From the IMG/VR virus record IMGVR_UViG_2657244940_000009, positions 1 to 8,998 of that record: a stretch of DNA of 8,998 nt, one strand, 5' to 3'. How positions within the stretch are numbered: the stretch's first letter is position 1; each line of letters begins with the position of its first letter. Below, piece after piece: positions 1-6,449 of the stretch. The DNA is from a virus (Duplodnaviria; Heunggongvirae; Uroviricota; Caudoviricetes). The notes below the pieces were generated by a model. That model had not been told where the DNA came from. It did no database searches and saw nothing but the letters and a program-made list of their open reading frames with translations. The translations under genes were made by a program, and so were the position numbers.

Positions 1-237
1 CAACGGTTCGTTCCCTTCACATAACCCGGCAGCAACATCCATGAAAAACTGCTTCGCCTGCTTTTTCGCCTCAGCTTCGTAAAACTCCAGCGTGGCACCT
101 TCAGTACGGTCAAGACTAATCGCCACATTTGCCAACAACAGTGACGGATACCCACCAATTTCCAGTGCCACAGTAACAGTAATCTTATCCGGGTAATGAT
201 TTATCCCTTTAACAACCAGTTCGTATTTTTTCTTCAT
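1..237 (-). CDS. Hypothetical protein, 5' part only (79 codons, continues off the left edge); not a recognisable endolysin
   Basis: Manual reverse-strand translation from ATG at 237..235: MKKKYELVVKGINHYPDKITVTVALEIGGYPSLLLANVAISLDRTEGATLEFYEAEAKKQAKQFFMDVAAGLCEGNEPL, no stop before position 1. Absent from the ORF track because it is open-ended. Starts 4 nt after the holin stop. Confidence 0.45.
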   Translation of the reverse strand, partial: MKKKYELVVKGINHYPDKITVTVALEIGGYPSLLLANVAISLDRTEGATLEFYEAEAKKQAKQFFMDVAAGLCEGNEPL

Positions 238-241
238 CGCT

Positions 242-457
242 TTACTCTCCCCGCGCCGCCTTACGACGGTCCTCTCTGATTTTGAAATACAGGTTAGTCA
301 GATATGTCAGCAGCCCAAACAGCAGACTTCCCAGTACGCCTATTGCCGCCCACTGAGACGGGGAAACCCTGTCCAGCAGCTGCAGGAACCAGTAGCCCGT
401 CCCCACCGCTGACGTGGTGTATGACACACCTGTTGTGATTTTTTCCATCTGGTACAT
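242..457 (-). CDS. S: Holin, S21/Stx-phage type (class II, pinholin-like), 71 aa
   Basis: Track ORF of 71 aa; sequence matches my recollection of the 933W/phage 21 holin family ([36 protein letters not shown]). Dual-start motif M1-Y-Q-M4; GGGAG Shine-Dalgarno upstream. Confidence 0.9.
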
Positions 458-532
458 ACCCCGTCTCCCGCAATCCGGAAGCTCACAACAACAAGAGGGG
501 CATCAGCTCACACCGACAGCCCCTGCGCATGG

Positions 533-802
533 TTACATCATCATTTCGCCGTCAGGCTGAGGCTCACTGCTACCATCAGGCTGAGACCCGACGCCATCTG
601 AAACAGCACTGTCATCCGCAATGCCTTCCGGCTCCGGAACAGTCGGTGCGCCCAGCAGTTCATCCAGAATGGCATCCACTTCTGCATCAAGACGCTCCTC
701 AAGGTTCTGCCGAAGTTGCTGTTTCAGTGCGCTTCTGACTTCTTCAGAGCGCAGGACTTCCTTCACTGCTTCAGCAGTGACCAGCGATTTTATTTCTGAC
801 AT
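533..802 (-). CDS. Hypothetical acidic protein, 89 aa (start taken at internal ATG; the track's 127-aa version would overlap the upstream ORF)
   Basis: Track ORF 533..916 uses a non-ATG start and overlaps ORF 840..1022. The internal ATG at 802..800 gives MSEIKSLVTAEAVKEVLRSEEV...PDGEMMM. Shine-Dalgarno is weak; no family recognised. Confidence 0.45.
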   Translation of the reverse strand: MSEIKSLVTAEAVKEVLRSEEVRSALKQQLRQNLEERLDAEVDAILDELLGAPTVPEPEGIADDSAVSDGVGSQPDGSSEPQPDGEMMM

Positions 803-839
803 GGTATTTTCTCGTTGAAAGGTGTTGTTAAGAAAGTTG

Positions 840-1022
840 CTACGGAATGAGAGGCTCTTCGGGTTTTGTTCCGGCTGACTGACTGGCACTGATTTTCTCA
901 GCGGCCCTTTTGTCAATCTGTCTGCGCCAGAAATCTCTCACGACTCTGTACCCACCAGAAAGAAGATACAGCACACAAACTGCTGTACAGAAATACAACA
1001 TAATCAGCTGTAAAAATGTCAT
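840..1022 (-). CDS. Small membrane protein, 60 aa, one N-terminal transmembrane helix and a basic C-terminal tail
   Basis: ATG at 1022..1020 preceded by GGAG at suitable spacing (GGAGATGAATAATATG on the minus strand); hydrophobic stretch LQLIMLYFCTAVCVLYLL. Confidence 0.55.
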   Translation of the reverse strand: MTFLQLIMLYFCTAVCVLYLLSGGYRVVRDFWRRQIDKRAAEKISASQSAGTKPEEPLIP

Positions 1023-1171
1023 TATTCATCTCCATTATTGACATGGTCAATGCCTGCCAGTAAAAAACTCCTGCATTTTTTGCTCAGCATATTTTTGCTA
1101 AGGATGTAGCGACTTCTGCCGCCGGTTCTGGCTCCTTGTTTTCCCTGCCACGGCGGTCTTTTTTTTCCTGC

Positions 1172-3115
1172 TTACGGGTTATTCACTTCCACTGTTATAC
1201 TTTCAATCAGCACCGTATACGTCGCCGCTTTTGTGATATCCGTTACACGTAATTTGTCTGCCGCAAAAGAACCTACCGGAGACTGCGACAGCATGAACGG
1301 TGCACCATCCTGACCATCAATCACCGGCGTCACCTGAATGCTGTTATTACCGGCAAAACGGAAGCCCAGCGTATGCCATTCGTTGTCAAATGCGCCGAAT
1401 GACCCCAGCTTCGTGTTCTGGTCAGCGTTACCCTTGTGGTACATCACGTTGAGGTCTGTGGCATCGCTCTGTACGTAAAACGACGCCAGCAGATTGTTAC
1501 CGGCATTACCTTCCAGTGTGACACCCTGAGGCAATGAAGAAACCGGCCAGTACAGCGCCAGTGCGTACTGATTAGCCGTAAGCGCGCCATCGAGTTTAAA
1601 ACGACAACTGACAAGACCACCTTTACCCAGCAGGTCCGCACCATTACCAGCATCATGCTCAAGGTACCAGGGGGCTCTTCCTGTTTCCTTGGTCAGTTTC
1701 ATTGCCTTACCCCCGCTGGCTCCGGCATCATCCACGATTTGAGCCTTGCCACCTCCAGCAGCCCAACCCTGTGGTGTCAACCGTCCTTCAGACTCAGATG
1801 CCCGGTAAGCAAATAGCGTACTCATCGTCGTGGTGTCTGCGGGTGGCGTGGACGGTTTTGATGGTGTATCAGGTGACGGCTTCTCATCCGGTGGTGTCAC
1901 GGTCTGCCCGCGCATCAATTCAGCCGTGCGCCCTGCATGGAGCATAATAGCTGAGGCCAGACGGTCTGAAATGACGCCCCTGCGTGCCCATGAGCTGAAA
2001 TGGCTGTCACGCTGTGTCGAAACAAAACTGCCCTGGGTTCGGGATGCTGCACCGTAATACCCGACAGCCACAATATCCGGGTCTTCCGCCGGAGCATTCG
2101 TTGGCGTGCTCTGTCCATTCTCATCCGTCAGGAACGGTACAAAGAAAATATTCTGTGCTTCCCTGCCCTTGTAACCGCCATATACCGCCTCATATTTATC
2201 GGCGTTAAGATTCTTCCAGTAATACGTGGTGTCACCACAAATCCACGGCACCGAGCCAGCACTTCCGCCAACACACTGTGCAGAATATGCAGCCATATCA
2301 GCCCTGAACTGCTGCACCATAGTGGTAAACAGGCCGCTGTGCTGCTGACTGCCGTCCGCAAGATCATTTTCCCCCTGCATCCATACCACGGCCAGAAGCC
2401 TGTTTTTCGGGTTCTTCGACAGCGCCGCTTTTGTACGGAAGAGAAAATCCTGATACAGCGGTTTACCCACTCCCCAGCGGGCTGAATTTGCCGATGCGCC
2501 AGACGTTTCGCTGAACGTGCCGTCATTACCCACGGTTAAACCAGACCCGCCACGGCAACAGGGCACCAGAAGAATCCCGGCATTCTGCGGGATATAAGGC
2601 AGCAGTTTTTTGGCAATATGCAGCCCCTGACCGACAGTCCCGTACTGGCCCTTACTCAGGTCTGCATGAGGATGGTTAAGTGCGCTCATGTCCTGAACAT
2701 CATGCAGACAGTGGTCTGCCGGAATAACGTCATTGTATGCACAGATATCACCACCCGGCGTCACAGTGCTGCGACGGGCCAGCTGCTTAATACGGGAGTC
2801 AGGGCGATCATAGGTCTCCGGCAGAGGAAGCCCCTCACCATAGGCCATACCGTTCGACTGCCCGGCCAGGGGAATAACGTAGTAATACTCCGGTTCAGTG
2901 GTAGCCACTCCCGGAGAGCCACCAGCCCCTGTGTCGGGCACAACCACAGGCGTGGTCACATCACCCTCTGCGGCAATGGCCTGCATCAGTGTATAAGGCG
3001 TGATAGCCACAGGACTGCCAAACGGCTGCCAGCCTTCCTTCAGTTTTTGTGTCAGTCGCTCCGCAAGGTCTGACGGCGACGCCGCCCTGACCACGTCATA
3101 GTGTTTAAATGCCAT
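1172..3115 (-). CDS. nanS-p: Prophage sialate O-acetylesterase NanS-p (N-terminal DUF1737-like region plus SASA/SGNH esterase), 647 aa
   Basis: Track ORF 1172..3145 starts at TTG; the ATG at 3115..3113 has a strong Shine-Dalgarno (GGGGAGGAATA-ATG) and gives MAFKHYDVVRAASPSDLAERL, the N-terminus I recall for Stx-phage NanS-p. GQSN motif (IPLAGQSNGMAYGEG) is the SASA esterase block. Position (downstream of Q/tRNAs, upstream of holin) matches Stx prophages. Confidence 0.85.
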   Translation of the reverse strand: MAFKHYDVVRAASPSDLAERLTQKLKEGWQPFGSPVAITPYTLMQAIAAEGDVTTPVVVPDTGAGGSPGVATTEPEYYYVIPLAGQSNGMAYGEGLPLPETYDRPDSRIKQLARRSTVTPGGDICAYNDVIPADHCLHDVQDMSALNHPHADLSKGQYGTVGQGLHIAKKLLPYIPQNAGILLVPCCRGGSGLTVGNDGTFSETSGASANSARWGVGKPLYQDFLFRTKAALSKNPKNRLLAVVWMQGENDLADGSQQHSGLFTTMVQQFRADMAAYSAQCVGGSAGSVPWICGDTTYYWKNLNADKYEAVYGGYKGREAQNIFFVPFLTDENGQSTPTNAPAEDPDIVAVGYYGAASRTQGSFVSTQRDSHFSSWARRGVISDRLASAIMLHAGRTAELMRGQTVTPPDEKPSPDTPSKPSTPPADTTTMSTLFAYRASESEGRLTPQGWAAGGGKAQIVDDAGASGGKAMKLTKETGRAPWYLEHDAGNGADLLGKGGLVSCRFKLDGALTANQYALALYWPVSSLPQGVTLEGNAGNNLLASFYVQSDATDLNVMYHKGNADQNTKLGSFGAFDNEWHTLGFRFAGNNSIQVTPVIDGQDGAPFMLSQSPVGSFAADKLRVTDITKAATYTVLIESITVEVNNP

Positions 3116-3203
3116 TATTCCTCCCCTTTCCGGGATTTTCCTCAACAGTTGCGGGCCACGGTCCGGCTACACGGAGAATCAAAAGAGGAGAACCGCAGCC
3201 CGC

Positions 3204-3234
3204 AAAACGAAAAAGGCCGCGCAGTTGCGCAGCC
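3204..3234 (-). terminator. Candidate intrinsic terminator or attenuator in the nanS-p leader
   Basis: Minus-strand stem GGCTGCGC / GCGCGGCC (8 bp, one G-U), loop AACT, followed by TTTTTCGTTTT. Confidence 0.45.
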
Positions 3235-3298
3235 TTATCACAGATGGTAAAAATCAGAACACGATAATAAAAATACCTGATGTATATTCATGCGACCC

Positions 3299-3326
3299 GC
3301 CCGCCACTCACTGCGGGCTTTTTTTT
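3299..3326 (+). terminator. Plus-strand intrinsic terminator-like hairpin (opposite to flanking genes)
   Basis: gcccgc (3299-3304) / gcgggc (3313-3318), 8-nt loop, then T8 (3319-3326). Confidence 0.45.
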
Positions 3327-3334
3327 GCCCATAG

Positions 3335-3361
3335 AAAAGCCCCTCCGGAGAGGGGCTTTTT
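3335..3361. terminator. Bidirectional intrinsic terminator
   Basis: Perfect 7-bp stem gcccctc / gaggggc with 4-nt loop, flanked by AAAA on one side and TTTTT on the other, so a T-run follows the stem on either strand. Confidence 0.6.
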
Positions 3362-3601
3362 ACAGTGGTAGTGTAGACAATTTTGCATGGTGCCGGGTGC
3401 CTCCCGGTGAGTTCAGTATCAGCACCTGAACCCGCACAGAAAGGATAAGGGTCGGTGACAAAACACCAGTTGCTGATTGCCCCTCCGCTTAGGGGGATTC
3501 ACCATGCCAGTTTCTTTTAACAAACTCCCCGCAAACCAGACAACAGTCAACCGCCTGAATTGTGAGGTATTTAAAAATTTCAACGGGTAACTGATACCCT
3601 G

Positions 3602-3763
3602 CTAATCGCCTGATGCTTTCTTTTTCAGCAACGGGAAAGCAACAACCACCACACCCGCCACCAGCACACCGTCAGCCAGCACTGACATTATCCGGCTGCT
3701 GAAGTCCACCATCACCACCATCACCACCAGAAACAGCAGGAGCGCAACCACAGCCAGACGCAT
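3602..3763 (-). CDS. Small hydrophobic protein, 53 aa, two predicted membrane helices; start 8 nt after the TerB-like stop
   Basis: Manual translation: MRLAVVALLLFLVVMVVMVDFSSRIMSVLADGVLVAGVVVVAFPLLKKKASGD. Below the ORF-track size cut-off. Weak Shine-Dalgarno and a repetitive GTG/CAC-rich sequence, so a chance ORF is possible. Confidence 0.3.
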   Translation of the reverse strand: MRLAVVALLLFLVVMVVMVDFSSRIMSVLADGVLVAGVVVVAFPLLKKKASGD

Positions 3764-3771
3764 TTTTACCG

Positions 3772-4203
3772 TCACAGATGATTCTCCAGACGAAGGCCCA
3801 GAACACCGGCAATCTCTTCCAGCACCTTGCGCTCTTCCGGCTCTATTTCGCCGTCTGCTTCGGCAATGGCCACCGCCACATCCAGCACGTCTTCCGCTTC
3901 ACGCGTATCGTGTTTCACATCCTCGATCTCACGTAACGCCGCTCGACGACCAATTTTAAAGTTCGTATCCAGCTGACCGATAATGGTTGCGCTAATCGCA
4001 TTAATTTCTGACGTAAACGCGGACAACGCAGGCTGGTTACGCAAGACCTGCTCGATCTTCGCTTTCTCTGAAGCCTCACATTCACCATCTGCATAGGCCA
4101 CCAGATAGGCAGCATTAATAACCGCCTGTGCCAGATCACGTTTCTCAAACTTTTTAATTTCCACTGCCGCTCGGCGGGCTTTTTTACCAAAAATACCAAA
4201 CAT
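3772..4203 (-). CDS. TerB-like (tellurite-resistance TerB family) domain protein, 143 aa
   Basis: Track ORF 3772..4275 starts at a non-ATG codon; ATG at 4203..4201 has AAGGAA 7-8 nt upstream and gives MFGIFGKKARRAAVEIKKF. Two TerB-like segments (AAYLVAYADGECEASEKAKIEQVL and VAVAIAEADGEIEPEERKVLEEIAGVLGL) resemble the helix-aDG-helix repeats of TerB as I recall them. Confidence 0.65.
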   Translation of the reverse strand: MFGIFGKKARRAAVEIKKFEKRDLAQAVINAAYLVAYADGECEASEKAKIEQVLRNQPALSAFTSEINAISATIIGQLDTNFKIGRRAALREIEDVKHDTREAEDVLDVAVAIAEADGEIEPEERKVLEEIAGVLGLRLENHL

Positions 4204-4335
4204 CGTGACGTTCCTTTGGGTGGGTGAGCCAACGCCCGGGAGCGATCTGCCCACAGAGAAAGTCACACTGACCACTCCGTAAGCTCACCCCCGAAAGGCT
4301 CTGTGGTTGATATGCGCCGGGCGTGGCGCAGATAC

Positions 4336-4358
4336 AAAAAAAGCCCGCCGAAGCGAGC
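4336..4358 (-). terminator. Intrinsic terminator after the tRNA cluster
   Basis: Minus-strand GCTCGC-TTCG-GCGGGC (one G-U) followed by TTTTTTT. Confidence 0.6.
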
Positions 4359-4371
4359 CTGATAATAAATC

Positions 4372-4446
4372 TGGAGCGGGTAGCGGGAATCGAACCCGCA
4401 TCATCAGCCTGGAAGGCTGAGGTAATAGCCATTATACGGTACCCGC
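4372..4446 (-). tRNA. tRNA-Gly (anticodon TCC), phage-borne, glyT-like
   Basis: Hand-folded: perfect 7-bp acceptor GCGGGTA/TACCCGC, anticodon stem TCAGC/GCTGA, loop CTTCCAG, T-arm GCGGG-TTCGATT-CCCGC, discriminator U, encoded CCA. Position 8 is C rather than the usual U. Confidence 0.75.
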
Positions 4447-4449
4447 ATA

Positions 4450-4525
4450 TGGTGCCGGCTACCGGAATCGAACTGGCGACCTGATGATTACAAGTCAGTT
4501 GCTCTACCATTGGAGCTAAACCAGC
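4450..4525 (-). tRNA. tRNA-Thr-like (anticodon TGT) with degenerate anticodon and T stems; possibly a pseudo-tRNA
   Basis: Acceptor GCTGGTT/AGCCGGC pairs with two G-U; canonical D-arm GCTC-CAATGGTA-GAGC; anticodon stem only 3 bp with loop CTTGTAA; T-stem has one mismatch; discriminator A; encoded CCA. Confidence 0.5.
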
Positions 4526-4530
4526 ATGTT

Positions 4531-4605
4531 TGGCGGGACAGCGTGGACTCGAACCACGATAAGAAGGTTAACAGCCTTCCGTAATGACCTTTATACGACT
4601 GACCC
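4531..4605 (-). tRNA. tRNA-Asn (anticodon GTT), phage-borne
   Basis: Perfect anticodon stem GAAGG/CCTTC with loop CTGTTAA; perfect T-arm CGTGG-TTCGAGT-CCACG; acceptor GGGTCAG/CTGTCCC with one mismatch; discriminator G; encoded CCA. Confidence 0.7.
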
Positions 4606-4609
4606 AAAT

Positions 4610-4651
4610 AAAAAAAGCCACCGTTGCAACTTAAGAGTCACTAACGGCAGC
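4610..4651 (-). terminator. tR'-like terminator between Q and the tRNA genes
   Basis: Minus-strand 9-bp stem GCUGCCGUU / AACGGUGGC (two G-U) with a 17-nt loop, followed by TTTTTTTATTT that abuts the 5' end of tRNA-Asn. Confidence 0.45.
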
Positions 4652-4696
4652 ATATGCCAATAGTGTTGCTCATTTGCTCAATGATGTCAACACGTC
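4652..4696 (-). promoter_or_regulatory. Candidate pR'-like late promoter / Q-utilisation region
   Basis: Consensus -35 hexamer TTGACA on the minus strand at 4690..4685, just after the Q stop; I could not identify a convincing -10, so this is positional inference from lambdoid architecture. Confidence 0.25.
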
Positions 4697-5185
4697 CTAT
4701 GCTACATGTTTAATTTTCTCTACACGTTTCCGGTTTTTAAACGCACTATCCAGAACCGGGTAAATCATAAACAACGAGGCATTAAGGATTTCGTCAACTT
4801 CCCGTCGACAGGTTGCGAGCGATGGTTTTTGAATGCGCCCGCCGCCCCGGCATAACATCTTGCGAGGTCTTGCGACGCAATGATAGTAAGATGCAATGGC
4901 GTGCCTGGAAGAACCATGAGCGTAGTAGCTGAGGAGGATGCCGAAGGCTTTCTTGTCAATGTACATGACGGAATCGACGACCTGAGAAATCAACATTCCA
5001 TCATCATCATTACACATTGGCCTTGTCATAACTCTTCCCGGCTCTACGCTCTCCATGAACTTCGCTATTACGCTGCTCATGCGCTTTTCCAGACGACCTG
5101 AATAAACCCATGCGCCCCACAGTTCAAGCCAGCCATTCAGCCACTCGTGCTGTTCTTTGGTGAGGTTTAGTTCTCTTATGCCCAC
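4697..5185 (-). CDS. Q: Late antiterminator Q (phage antitermination Q family), 162 aa; start codon uncertain
   Basis: WGAW motif and Cys/His cluster ([14 protein letters not shown]) as in Q proteins of 933W-type phages as I recall them; immediately downstream of ninI with a 10-nt overlap; track start is GTG with GGAG/AAGG upstream. Confidence 0.8.
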
Positions 5186-5847
5186 GCGCCTTCTCCCTGT
5201 ACCTGAATCAATGTGAGGTTTCCGCAGAACACTGCGCCGGTATCGATATACATCTGGTTGGCAAACTTGAGTGGTTTCACTGCTGGCGTATGACCAAAGA
5301 TGAACGTGTCCGCGCCTTTAATTTCTTTCACGATCCCGTCTTGTGAGTTGCCGATTCGTTCGCGGTTCCAGATTACCTGCTGAGGATCAACTGGCTTTCC
5401 AAATTCGTATTCGTTACAAGGATAATCGGCGTGGCAAATGACATATTTTTTATCTTTGCTCACCAGTTCGATGATTAACGGAAGTTCTTCTGCTTTATGG
5501 GCAAGAGCTTTAGCCAGAATCTCTTTGTCGTAATCGAGATTGAAGAACCAGCCACCGCCATTAAGCAGCCAGTGATTAACGTTTCCACGCTCTGATAAGC
5601 CATCAATCATCATTTGCTCATGGTTTCCACGTACAGCTCTGAACCAGGGGAATGTGATTAATTCCAGACATTCGACGTTCTCTGTACCGCGATCAACCAA
5701 ATCGCCAACCGAGATGAGCAGGTCTTTTTTGTTGTCGAATCCAATCGTATCCAGTTTGTTCATCAGGTTCGTGTAGCATCCGTGCAGGTCGCCAGCTACC
5801 CAAATATTTCGGTATTTGCTGCCATCAATTCTTTCGTAGATATTCAT
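5176..5847 (-). CDS. ninI: NinI Ser/Thr protein phosphatase (lambda PPase homologue), 223 aa
   Basis: Near-identity over most of the length to lambda phosphatase as I recall it; metallophosphoesterase motifs GDLHG, GDLVDRG, GNHE; ATGA overlap with the ninG stop. Confidence 0.95.
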
Positions 5848-6449
5848 GCAGCCTCACTTCTGCTATTTCGCAGTTTTTTAAGTTTCTGTTGGTACTCTTC
5901 CTTGATCGCCTTGCACTCTTCGACAGTCCAGCGATGGCGGTTATGGTTTGATTCGATTTCATCTACTGCTTCCTGCCCGATGCGGCTAATCAGTTCGACG
6001 CGATACGGAACGAGATTTCCGCTTTTGTGCTGGTTGCACACCACGCATTGCTTGTGAATATTGCGTTCATCAAATCGGAGTTGAGGTGCCGCAGCAGTTG
6101 TCCGGTAATGTCCGGCATCCCACTGAGCAGACGTGAGCGTTCCGCACGAGATACATGGTAAGTCGCGGTCTCTTTCTCTGATGAAGGCGTTTACGGCTTG
6201 TTGGGCTTGTTTAATCCAGTAACTGCGGGGCTTTAAGGCGAGTTTTCGAATCTTCAGTTTATCTTTCTGTTTCTGCTCCTCTCGTCGTCGTTTCTTCTCT
6301 GCTGCTTTTTCCGCTTTTTCGCGTTCTTTACTTCGTCGTTCGAGTGCTAATTGAGTTCCGTGTTCCGGGCAGCACCACCACTGATTTGAGAATGCCGGGT
6401 GAAACCATTCTTTGCATATTTTGCATTTCCTTCGCGCTGGTTTAGCCAT
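5844..6449 (-). CDS. ninG: NinG (Rap) protein, 201 aa
   Basis: Strong match to lambda NinG as I recall it ([65 protein letters not shown]); Cys-rich motifs; TAATG overlap with the upstream gene. Confidence 0.95.

Follow-up and report, generated by a model that had tools for sequence, protein, structure and literature searches.

A recombinant prophage tRNA-Thr(UGU) with a three-pair anticodon stem as a possible nuclease-resistant replacement tRNA

The window analysed here, i.e. the whole stretch of 8,998 nucleotides that makes up positions 1 to 8,998 of the IMG/VR virus record IMGVR_UViG_2657244940_000009 (Caudoviricetes), carries a tRNA cassette of the order Asn-Thr-Gly, which is located behind the Q antiterminator gene and a tR'-type terminator and whose genes are separated by spacers of 5 and 3 nt. 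The middle gene, a tRNA-Thr(UGU)-like element read on the minus strand from window position 4525 to 4450, is referred to as Thr*. Its RNA is 76 nt long, with the anticodon UGU at window positions 4492-4490, and reads GCUGGUU-UA-GCUC-CAAUGGUA-GAGC-A-ACUGA-CUUGUAA-UCAUC in its first half and, continuing from UCAUC, AGGUC-GCCAG-UUCGAUU-CCGGU-AGCCGGC-A-CCA in its second half. Both window positions and tRNA positions are used below; the allele of the window, which has C68, is called B and its one-base variant with U68 is called B'. The coordinates of all features are listed in Table 1.

Table 1. Features of the window, with the evidence on which each assignment is based.
Feature	Window positions	Strand	Basis
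Chimeric tRNA-Thr(UGU) gene Thr*, CCA encoded	4450..4525	-	Rfam RF00005; PGAP call on identical sequence; allele comparison
Thr* positions 1-26, same sequence as the tRNA-Thr of phage 21	4500..4525	-	100 % match to OL657228.1 (phage 21)
Thr* positions 27-76, thrU-type	4450..4499	-	Comparison with E. coli K-12 thrU
Anticodon-stem lesion: U42 C43 (thrU, G42 U43)	4483..4484	-	Sequence; cut sites from PMC12445682, PMC12409363
C68 (U68 in thrU and B'); G5.U68 becomes G5-C68	4458..4458	-	Allele comparison and ViennaRNA
tRNA-Asn(GUU), phage type	4531..4605	-	ARAGORN, Rfam
tRNA-Gly(UCC), glyT-derived	4372..4446	-	ARAGORN, Rfam, allele comparison
tR'-type late terminator hairpin, directly upstream of Asn	~4606..4653	-	Homologue in phage Nil2 bears the annotation tR' late terminator; hairpin read in sequence
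Intrinsic terminator-like hairpin with T-run, just downstream of Gly	4341..4360	-	Sequence
Q antiterminator gene, phage 21 type	4697..5185	-	Homology
STnc100 small RNA (sRNA) family	3327-3536	-	Full-length match, 144 bits
Chromosomal ogt gene	7741-8256	-	Homology
mcaS, adjoining an abgR (LysR) remnant	8603-8698	-	Rfam, 112.8 bits

The fold of Thr* agrees with the structural description given in the first-pass annotation, which had been made from the letters of the window and had regarded the element as a Thr-like tRNA with a broken anticodon stem. The acceptor stem is paired at 7/7 positions, including two G.U pairs, the D stem is paired at 4/4 positions, the discriminator is A73 and the CCA end is encoded. 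The anticodon loop, CUUGUAA, is canonical; the stem that carries it falls short of the canonical five pairs and retains three (29-41, 30-40 and 31-39), next to the two mismatches A27.C43 (window 4499/4483) and C28.U42 (window 4498/4484). An alternative register with 4 bp and a 10-nt loop (28-45 to 31-42), which had also been suggested, can be drawn, but ViennaRNA assigns it a probability of zero in the ensemble. The T arm is that of thrU, including the mismatch A52.C62. This mismatch, previously listed as a further defect, is indeed present, but it is inherited and does not represent damage, because it is native to the functional thrU gene of E. coli K-12 and occurs in 28/28 of the distinct related alleles examined.

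Covariance-model scoring, which had been proposed as a check, assigned 49.0 bits (E = 2.6e-8) to Thr* with Rfam RF00005, compared to a gathering threshold of 29, so that the match to the tRNA model is far above chance, and again gave three of five anticodon-stem pairs. The corresponding scores were 73.8 bits for thrU, 61.5 bits for the tRNA-Thr of phage 21 (tRNA-Thr21), 58.6 bits for an intact hybrid of these two (see below) and about 55 bits for the cassette neighbours. In seven complete E. coli genomes, the Prokaryotic Genome Annotation Pipeline (PGAP) lists a sequence identical to Thr* under the name tRNA-Thr. The element is thus real, yet borderline for standard software. Threonyl-tRNA synthetase (ThrRS) uses G1-C72, C2-G71, G35 and U36 as identity elements, all of which are intact in Thr*. 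The A at tRNA position 14, the partner of U8, is near-universal; Thr* has C14 (window 4512) as part of its phage 21-type D-loop, and the same C14 is found in the experimentally functional tRNA-Thr21.

Thr* is a recombinant of a phage 21-type tRNA-Thr and a thrU-type cargo tRNA. From position 18 to position 76 it differs from K-12 thrU at four sites only (G42U, U43C, A49G and U68C), and the crossover interval, GGTAGAGCA at positions 18-26 (window 4508-4500), is common to both parents. One parent, tRNA-Thr21, is also present behind Q in Sf6, BTP1 and HK446 as well as in numerous prophages of Salmonella and E. coli, and this form ("type A") accounts for about 105 of 120 IMG/VR loci. The other parent belongs to a module of a thrU-type Thr gene and a glyT-type Gly gene with TAT as the spacer between them, which a junction search found to be widespread in prophages; 63 of about 126 sampled prophage thrU-type copies are identical to host thrU, and phage-flanked thrU/glyT copies with variable thrU sequence have been described (PMC4539685). 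A 15-mer spanning the Thr-Gly junction was discarded as a query against 596 Gb of genome contigs, since it was too short and nearly all of its matches were chance matches in unrelated bacteria. A separate locus (L078; IMG/VR UViG_2698536369_000006, positions 1279-1509) comprises Asn, an exact Thr21/thrU hybrid whose thrU anticodon arm is intact, and a near-pristine glyT. This hybrid is a candidate for an intermediate on the way to Thr*.

The two changed bases, U42 and C43, which break the pairs 28-42 and 27-43, are located directly 3' of a position at which this tRNA is cut by known anti-phage nucleases. P2 Old, a Toprim nuclease to which P2 lysogens owe their classical exclusion of lambda, kills via degradation of the thrU tRNA, which it cuts after C28 (site 1) and C40 (site 2) within the paired motifs C28-U-G30 and C40-A-G42 (PMC12445682). 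AriB of the PARIS system cuts the same tRNA between C40 and A41; its determinants are U39, A41 and the D-loop residue U16, and its site is U36AAUC/A41, the slash marking the cut (PMC12409363). In a published validation, the exchange U16C impaired AriB cleavage of tRNA-Lys. Resistance to Old depends on two changes, an altered CNG motif and a shorter stem, either of which is insufficient by itself, and is achieved by G30C/C40G plus U43A in tRNA-Thr6 and by C28U/G42A plus a shorter stem in tRNA-Thr21 (PMC12445682).

Both of these factors are present in Thr*. G42U destroys the 3' CNG motif (C40-A-G42 in thrU, C40-A-U42 in Thr*) and leaves C28 unpaired, while the 5' motif C28-U-G30 is unchanged; U43C replaces A27-U43 with A27.C43 and thereby shortens the stem. 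With regard to AriB, Thr* has A at position 16, derived from the Thr21-type D-loop, in place of U16, and it keeps U39, C40 and A41; U39 is absent from the neighbouring Asn and from tRNA-Thr21. The intact hybrid described above should be sensitive to Old under the published rules.

We consider that Thr* serves the phage as a replacement ("rescue") tRNA-Thr(UGU) and that the weakening of its anticodon stem probably provides resistance against Toprim anticodon-stem nucleases, and we put the probability of this reading at roughly 0.55. It is based on the position of the lesion beside Old site 2 and the AriB cut and its fit to the two-factor rule; on the fact that tRNA-Thr21, the donor of the 5' part, protects against Old in experiments; on the sequence C40-A-U-C43, which is shared with the tRNA-Thr of T5; on the recurrence of the lesion on several backgrounds, uncompensated, while the acceptor stem stays paired; on the loss of CNG motifs and U39 in the neighbouring phage Asn; on the variation of positions 16, 20, 42 and 43, which includes the AriB-impairing U16C; and on the share of ACA among the Thr codons of the phage open reading frames in the window, which is 28 %. 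The cassette would be transcribed with the late operon after antitermination by Q, and Thr* would then be cut out by the normal tRNA-processing enzymes and charged by ThrRS. With the helix around the Old and AriB cut sites dismantled and a Thr21-type D-loop in place of the AriB determinant U16, the tRNA would escape cleavage and would keep ACA readable when a P2-like prophage or PARIS destroys the host tRNA. The resistance reading assumes that a stem of three pairs would still allow efficient decoding.

The same nuclease biology bears on the idea of a nuclease decoy raised in the first-pass annotation, according to which a non-decoding Thr* would bind AriB or Old, or be cut by them sacrificially, and thus spare the host tRNA. 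Recognition elements (U36AAUC/A41, A37 and C28-U-G30) are kept, as a decoy would need, and competition of overexpressed viral tRNAs with those of the host is considered possible by the authors of the AriB study (PMC12409363). The direction towards nucleases appears right, but the published rescue by phage tRNA-Thr(UGU), including that of phage 21, is due to cleavage resistance combined with replacement of the host tRNA in ACA decoding and not to competition: host thrU tRNA was still depleted by P2 Old when a resistant phage tRNA-Thr was present, and extra copies of host thrU gave little or no protection (PMC12445682). For the latter reason an unaltered thrU copy would be no help against Old. 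Moreover, a single-copy gene in a late operon is unlikely to out-titrate a catalytic nuclease, and a pure decoy would have no need for the ThrRS identity elements and the UGU anticodon, which are fully conserved in all lesion-bearing allele classes described below (UC, CC and CCG). A decoy function is therefore judged very improbable.

To follow the lesion across related loci, IMG/VR was searched for any allele lacking G42, which yielded 34 loci, and the classification was made on 36 loci, including the window and two genome-derived loci. UC at positions 42-43 was present in the chimeric body at 19 loci (14 with C68 and 5 with U68) and in ordinary thrU-type bodies, with varied D-loop haplotypes and neighbours, at 10 loci. 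CC at the same positions was found in thrU-type bodies at 2 loci, and 5 loci had CCG at 42-44 (L157, L362, L364, L366 and L369 in IMG/VR). The alleles of this CCG lineage also carry G10A, the compensated change C13U+G22A and G19A, and four of the five loci have G67A, which makes the pair U6-A67, together with a change of CCA to CUA, so that decay-like and structure-preserving changes are mixed.

Among 28 distinct thrU-type alleles, 12 have UC or CC at 42-43, with the other positions often being those of pristine thrU, and in these 12 the pairs 27-43 and 28-42 are open. No allele restores the pairing, A27 and C28 being invariant. The acceptor stem, by comparison, is paired in 100 % of cells across the 28 alleles, and its pairs have changed on both sides, from AU via GU to GC at 5-68 and from CG via UG to UA at 6-67, with U68C and G67A occurring in alleles whose anticodon stem is already broken; the D-stem pair 13-22 has likewise changed from CG to UA. 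The alignment of homologues that had been suggested in search of compensatory changes thus revealed preservation of the acceptor pairs 5-68 and 6-67, but no compensation at 27-43 or 28-42. The most variable positions among prophage thrU-type alleles are 16, 20, 42 and 43, and U16C is the commonest polymorphism of these copies.

U16C was also seen outside prophages. The metagenome contig OLJY01000043.1 (L385, positions 7643-7718) carries the E. coli chromosomal arrangement thrU-tyrU-glyT-thrT-tufB with 99.86 % identity to K-12 over 715 nt, the sole difference being U16C in thrU, which may have resulted from gene conversion by a prophage copy or may represent an escape on the host side. An origin of U16C as the thrU allele of another species was rejected, because the single metagenome contig with C16 in a native thrU-tyrU context was from E. 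coli.

Ribonuclease (RNase) P recognises the acceptor and T arms of its substrates. The conservation of both arms in the allele series, with the complete pairing noted above, and the short spacers would suit an element that is kept only for the cutting of the late transcript by RNase P or RNase E and the consequent release of Asn and Gly, as had also been considered in the first-pass annotation. However, Asn and Gly each have an RNase P substrate structure of their own, many phages carry Asn-Thr or Thr-Gly without a third tRNA gene, and the invariant anticodon and ThrRS identity as well as the change at 42-43 would be left unexplained. No supporting feature was found for such a processing signal, and we regard it as scarcely credible.

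Folding energies were predicted with ViennaRNA, which leaves out tertiary contacts and base modifications. In the thrU body, the cloverleaf loses stability upon the UC change (-17.0 kcal/mol, compared to -21.5 kcal/mol without it). In thrU as well as in all derivatives of it, positions 29-35 can alternatively pair with 43-49 in a 7-bp hairpin, in which the anticodon is buried. This competing fold is strengthened by the UC change because U43C turns G35.U43 into G35-C43; even in wild-type thrU it is preferred by ViennaRNA, by 1.3 kcal/mol. U68C raises the predicted probability of the acceptor-stem pair from 0.08 in the U68 allele to 0.94, and the acceptor helix is therefore predicted to be restored.

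Several observations weigh against a nuclease-resistant replacement tRNA. Cleavage of Thr* may persist, since the 5' CNG motif and the AriB motif U36AAUC/A41, including U39, are intact, and positions 16 and 20 are naturally tolerant D-loop sites, whose variation may be neutral. The other observations would also be explained by neutral decay, in which Thr* is a crippled or hypomorphic redundant cargo tRNA, the lesion having arisen either a single time or several times at a hot spot of mutation, and having been carried along unselected by drift and recombination among prophages, its position at the nuclease site being coincidental. Two adjacent mismatches leave Thr* with 3 bp, compared to a single mismatch in each of the validated resistant tRNA-Thr sequences that were compared, and ViennaRNA prefers the anticodon-burying hairpin, with a minimum free energy of -22.2 kcal/mol versus -14.3 kcal/mol for the cloverleaf. 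Standard tRNA finders fail or are borderline: ARAGORN called the Asn(GUU) and Gly(UCC) neighbours but not Thr*, and PGAP left the U68 variant (B') without annotation in six other complete genomes. Alleles like Thr* are rare, with 25 carriers among 5,426 complete E. coli genomes, and the CCG lineage, having lost G10, G19 and the CCA end, resembles a gene in further decay. Gly, which belongs to the same cassette, has odd changes (C8 and G38) and an excess of polymorphism, with several of its variable sites being stem-breaking. The density of single-nucleotide polymorphisms (SNPs) in Thr* is no lower than, and indistinguishable from, that of its flanks (2-3 %), there being too few SNPs within flank-sharing groups to tell the two apart. 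In addition, the copy of the window lies in a truncated lambdoid prophage.

A templated mutation would fit neutral decay as well. The change creates a new 8-mer, ATCATCAG, which is the exact reverse complement of glyT 40-47 and has this counterpart less than 300 nt downstream in every locus with TC. An origin of G42U/U43C from a quasi-palindrome was nevertheless set aside, because wild-type arms of no more than 4+2 bp offer a weak basis for template switching, and because thrU-type genes nearly always occur with glyT; a templated origin of the double change is possible, and it would bear on how the change arose and not on its function.

Neutral decay does not readily account for a lesion at exactly the two positions that give the published resistance signature, nor for its presence on many otherwise intact thrU-type sequences with differing neighbours. 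Every change in the acceptor stem is pair-preserving, two of them being improvements in lesion-bearing alleles, and the tRNA-Thr of T5 has the same C-A-U-C. The suggestion of a decaying gene in the first-pass annotation hence stands as the main rival, although we think it less likely; its structural reading was right and its interpretation was supported in part. If the resistance reading is wrong, Thr* is an ordinary decaying cargo tRNA.

Several known tRNAs come close to Thr*. The Old-resistant, phage-encoded tRNA-Thr21 of phage 21 and the T-even-type tRNA-Thr6 (Govande et al., NAR 2025, PMC12445682) share its UGU anticodon, an altered CNG motif and the loss of the 27-43 pair; tRNA-Thr21, in addition, occupies the same slot after Q and tR' beside a tRNA-Asn and is identical at positions 1-26. 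The routes to this signature differ, with G42U/U43C on a thrU arm in Thr*, C28U/G42A plus G27.A43 in tRNA-Thr21 and G30C/C40G plus U43A in tRNA-Thr6. Unlike either of them, Thr* loses two adjacent pairs and keeps the 5' CNG motif. The tRNA-Thr(UGU) of T5 is one of three T5 tRNAs that jointly neutralise PARIS AriB (Belukhina et al. 2025, PMC12409363). It resembles Thr* in its anticodon, in an identical C40-A-U-C43 and in a pyrimidine-pyrimidine 28.42 mismatch (U28.U42 in T5) beside the cut between positions 40 and 41, but it has G39, whereas Thr* has U39 and thus keeps the UAAU motif, it retains the pair G27-C43 and its remaining sequence is unrelated. E. coli thrU (tRNA-Thr4, UGU) shares with Thr* positions 18-76 except for the four differences given above, the A52.C62 mismatch, G1-C72, C2-G71 and the anticodon loop; it lacks the phage 21-type 5' third (C14, A16), the two broken pairs at the top of the anticodon stem and the two acceptor G.U pairs. 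The prophage thrU-glyT cargo modules of Shigella and E. coli (PMC4539685) have the same 3-nt TAT spacer and flanking phage genes as the Thr*-Gly part of the cassette, whereas Thr* is recombinant, mutated and joined to the Asn of a phage 21/Sf6-type cassette. It is already known that the gene is annotated as tRNA-Thr in public records, and altered, shortened-stem phage tRNA-Thr(UGU) acting against Old and PARIS have been published. The chimeric allele, the G42U/U43C route on a thrU arm that leaves three pairs and the series of prophage thrU alleles appear to be undescribed.

The neighbouring genes differ from each other in their constraint. Compared to host asnT, the phage Asn has lost both CNG motifs (A28-A-G30 and C40-U-U42) as well as U39, and it has a U4.U69 mismatch in its acceptor stem; it is invariant at 19/19 B/B' loci. 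Host tRNA-Asn is a target of both P2 Old and PARIS AriB (PMC12445682, PMC12409363), and these losses may explain why lambdoid and P22-like phages have an Asn gene behind Q, which had been puzzling. In the window, the Gly gene corresponds to glyT apart from the compensatory pair C6U+G67A, from U8C (window 4439), the unusual C at position 8 that had been pointed out earlier, and from A38G (window 4409), which could permit a C32-G38 pair and a smaller anticodon loop. Across the 19 loci, variable sites number 1 of 76 in Thr* (the pairing-improving change), 0 of 75 in Asn and 6 of 75 in Gly, those of Gly including G10A, G39U and G53C, by which stems or conserved bases are disrupted. Relaxed constraint thus looks like a feature of the Gly gene and not of the Thr gene. 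A raw polymorphism test of constraint was rejected, since the cassette flanks are different modules, which renders the comparison meaningless.

A further enzyme was considered for the prophage Thr and Gly pair. The toxSAS FaRel2 prefers Thr and Gly tRNAs, with G1-C72, C2-G71, G4-C69 and G5-C68 as determinants (PMC11559606). Thr* with C68 has all four of these pairs, while thrU has A5-U68. A possible link of the widespread prophage thrU+glyT pairing to toxSAS-type defences was set aside as a lead, because FaRel2 is a Firmicute enzyme and its determinants lie in the acceptor stem.

No sigma-70-like promoter was found at window positions 4250-4800. Given this result and the place of the cassette behind Q and tR', its expression is most simply explained by Q-dependent late transcription, and we infer that it belongs to that transcription unit; for P22-like phages, the corresponding question has been described as open (PMC8022706). 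The Asn(GUU)-Thr(UGU) tandem is known at the same position in SfI, Sf6, ST64T and phage 21, the role of Asn being described as unclear (PMC3636060). Where Thr is of the window type (19 loci), three types of left-flank and four types of right-flank modules surround the cassette, so the conserved tRNA genes serve as junctions at which the lambdoid mosaic recombines. In some genomes, such as that of E. coli UTME-3 (NZ_CP168984.1; L387, positions 660-1172), a gene for an HNH endonuclease is inserted between Q and Asn-Thr*-Gly, which is reminiscent of the homing endonucleases in the tRNA regions of T4 and T5.

Prophage homology stops at window position ~7661, after which chromosomal sequence begins, indicating that the prophage is truncated in the nin region and that its early genes are missing on the ogt side. 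From ~8756 onwards, the window is multi-copy and resembles an end of IS1. The STnc100 match lies in the late region, between the genes for DUF3927 and the DUF6645/SASA esterase.

A broader proposal, namely that prophage thrU copies are naturally converted to nuclease-proof forms by breaking of the top two pairs and that the resulting three-pair elongator tRNA would still translate, seems doubtful at present. If it holds, positions 16, 20, 42 and 43 would be a live record of an arms race with Old- and PARIS-type nucleases that may extend to chromosomal thrU, as with the U16C of the metagenome contig. In a more radical version of this broader proposal, Thr* would have dispensed with decoding and would inhibit Old- and PARIS-type nucleases instead. 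If the resistance reading is right, what annotation software takes for damage in phage tRNAs, such as mismatched anticodon stems, low scores and the label "pseudo", could be the functional point of the gene, and the long-unexplained occurrence of Asn(GUU) together with Thr(UGU) behind Q in lambdoid and P22-like phages would have a simple reason, as the two host tRNAs are targets of both Old and PARIS. The series that leads from exact thrU via the intact hybrid to UC and CC would then be a natural set of substrates, useful for defining the substrate rules of Toprim nucleases and the minimum working anticodon stem.

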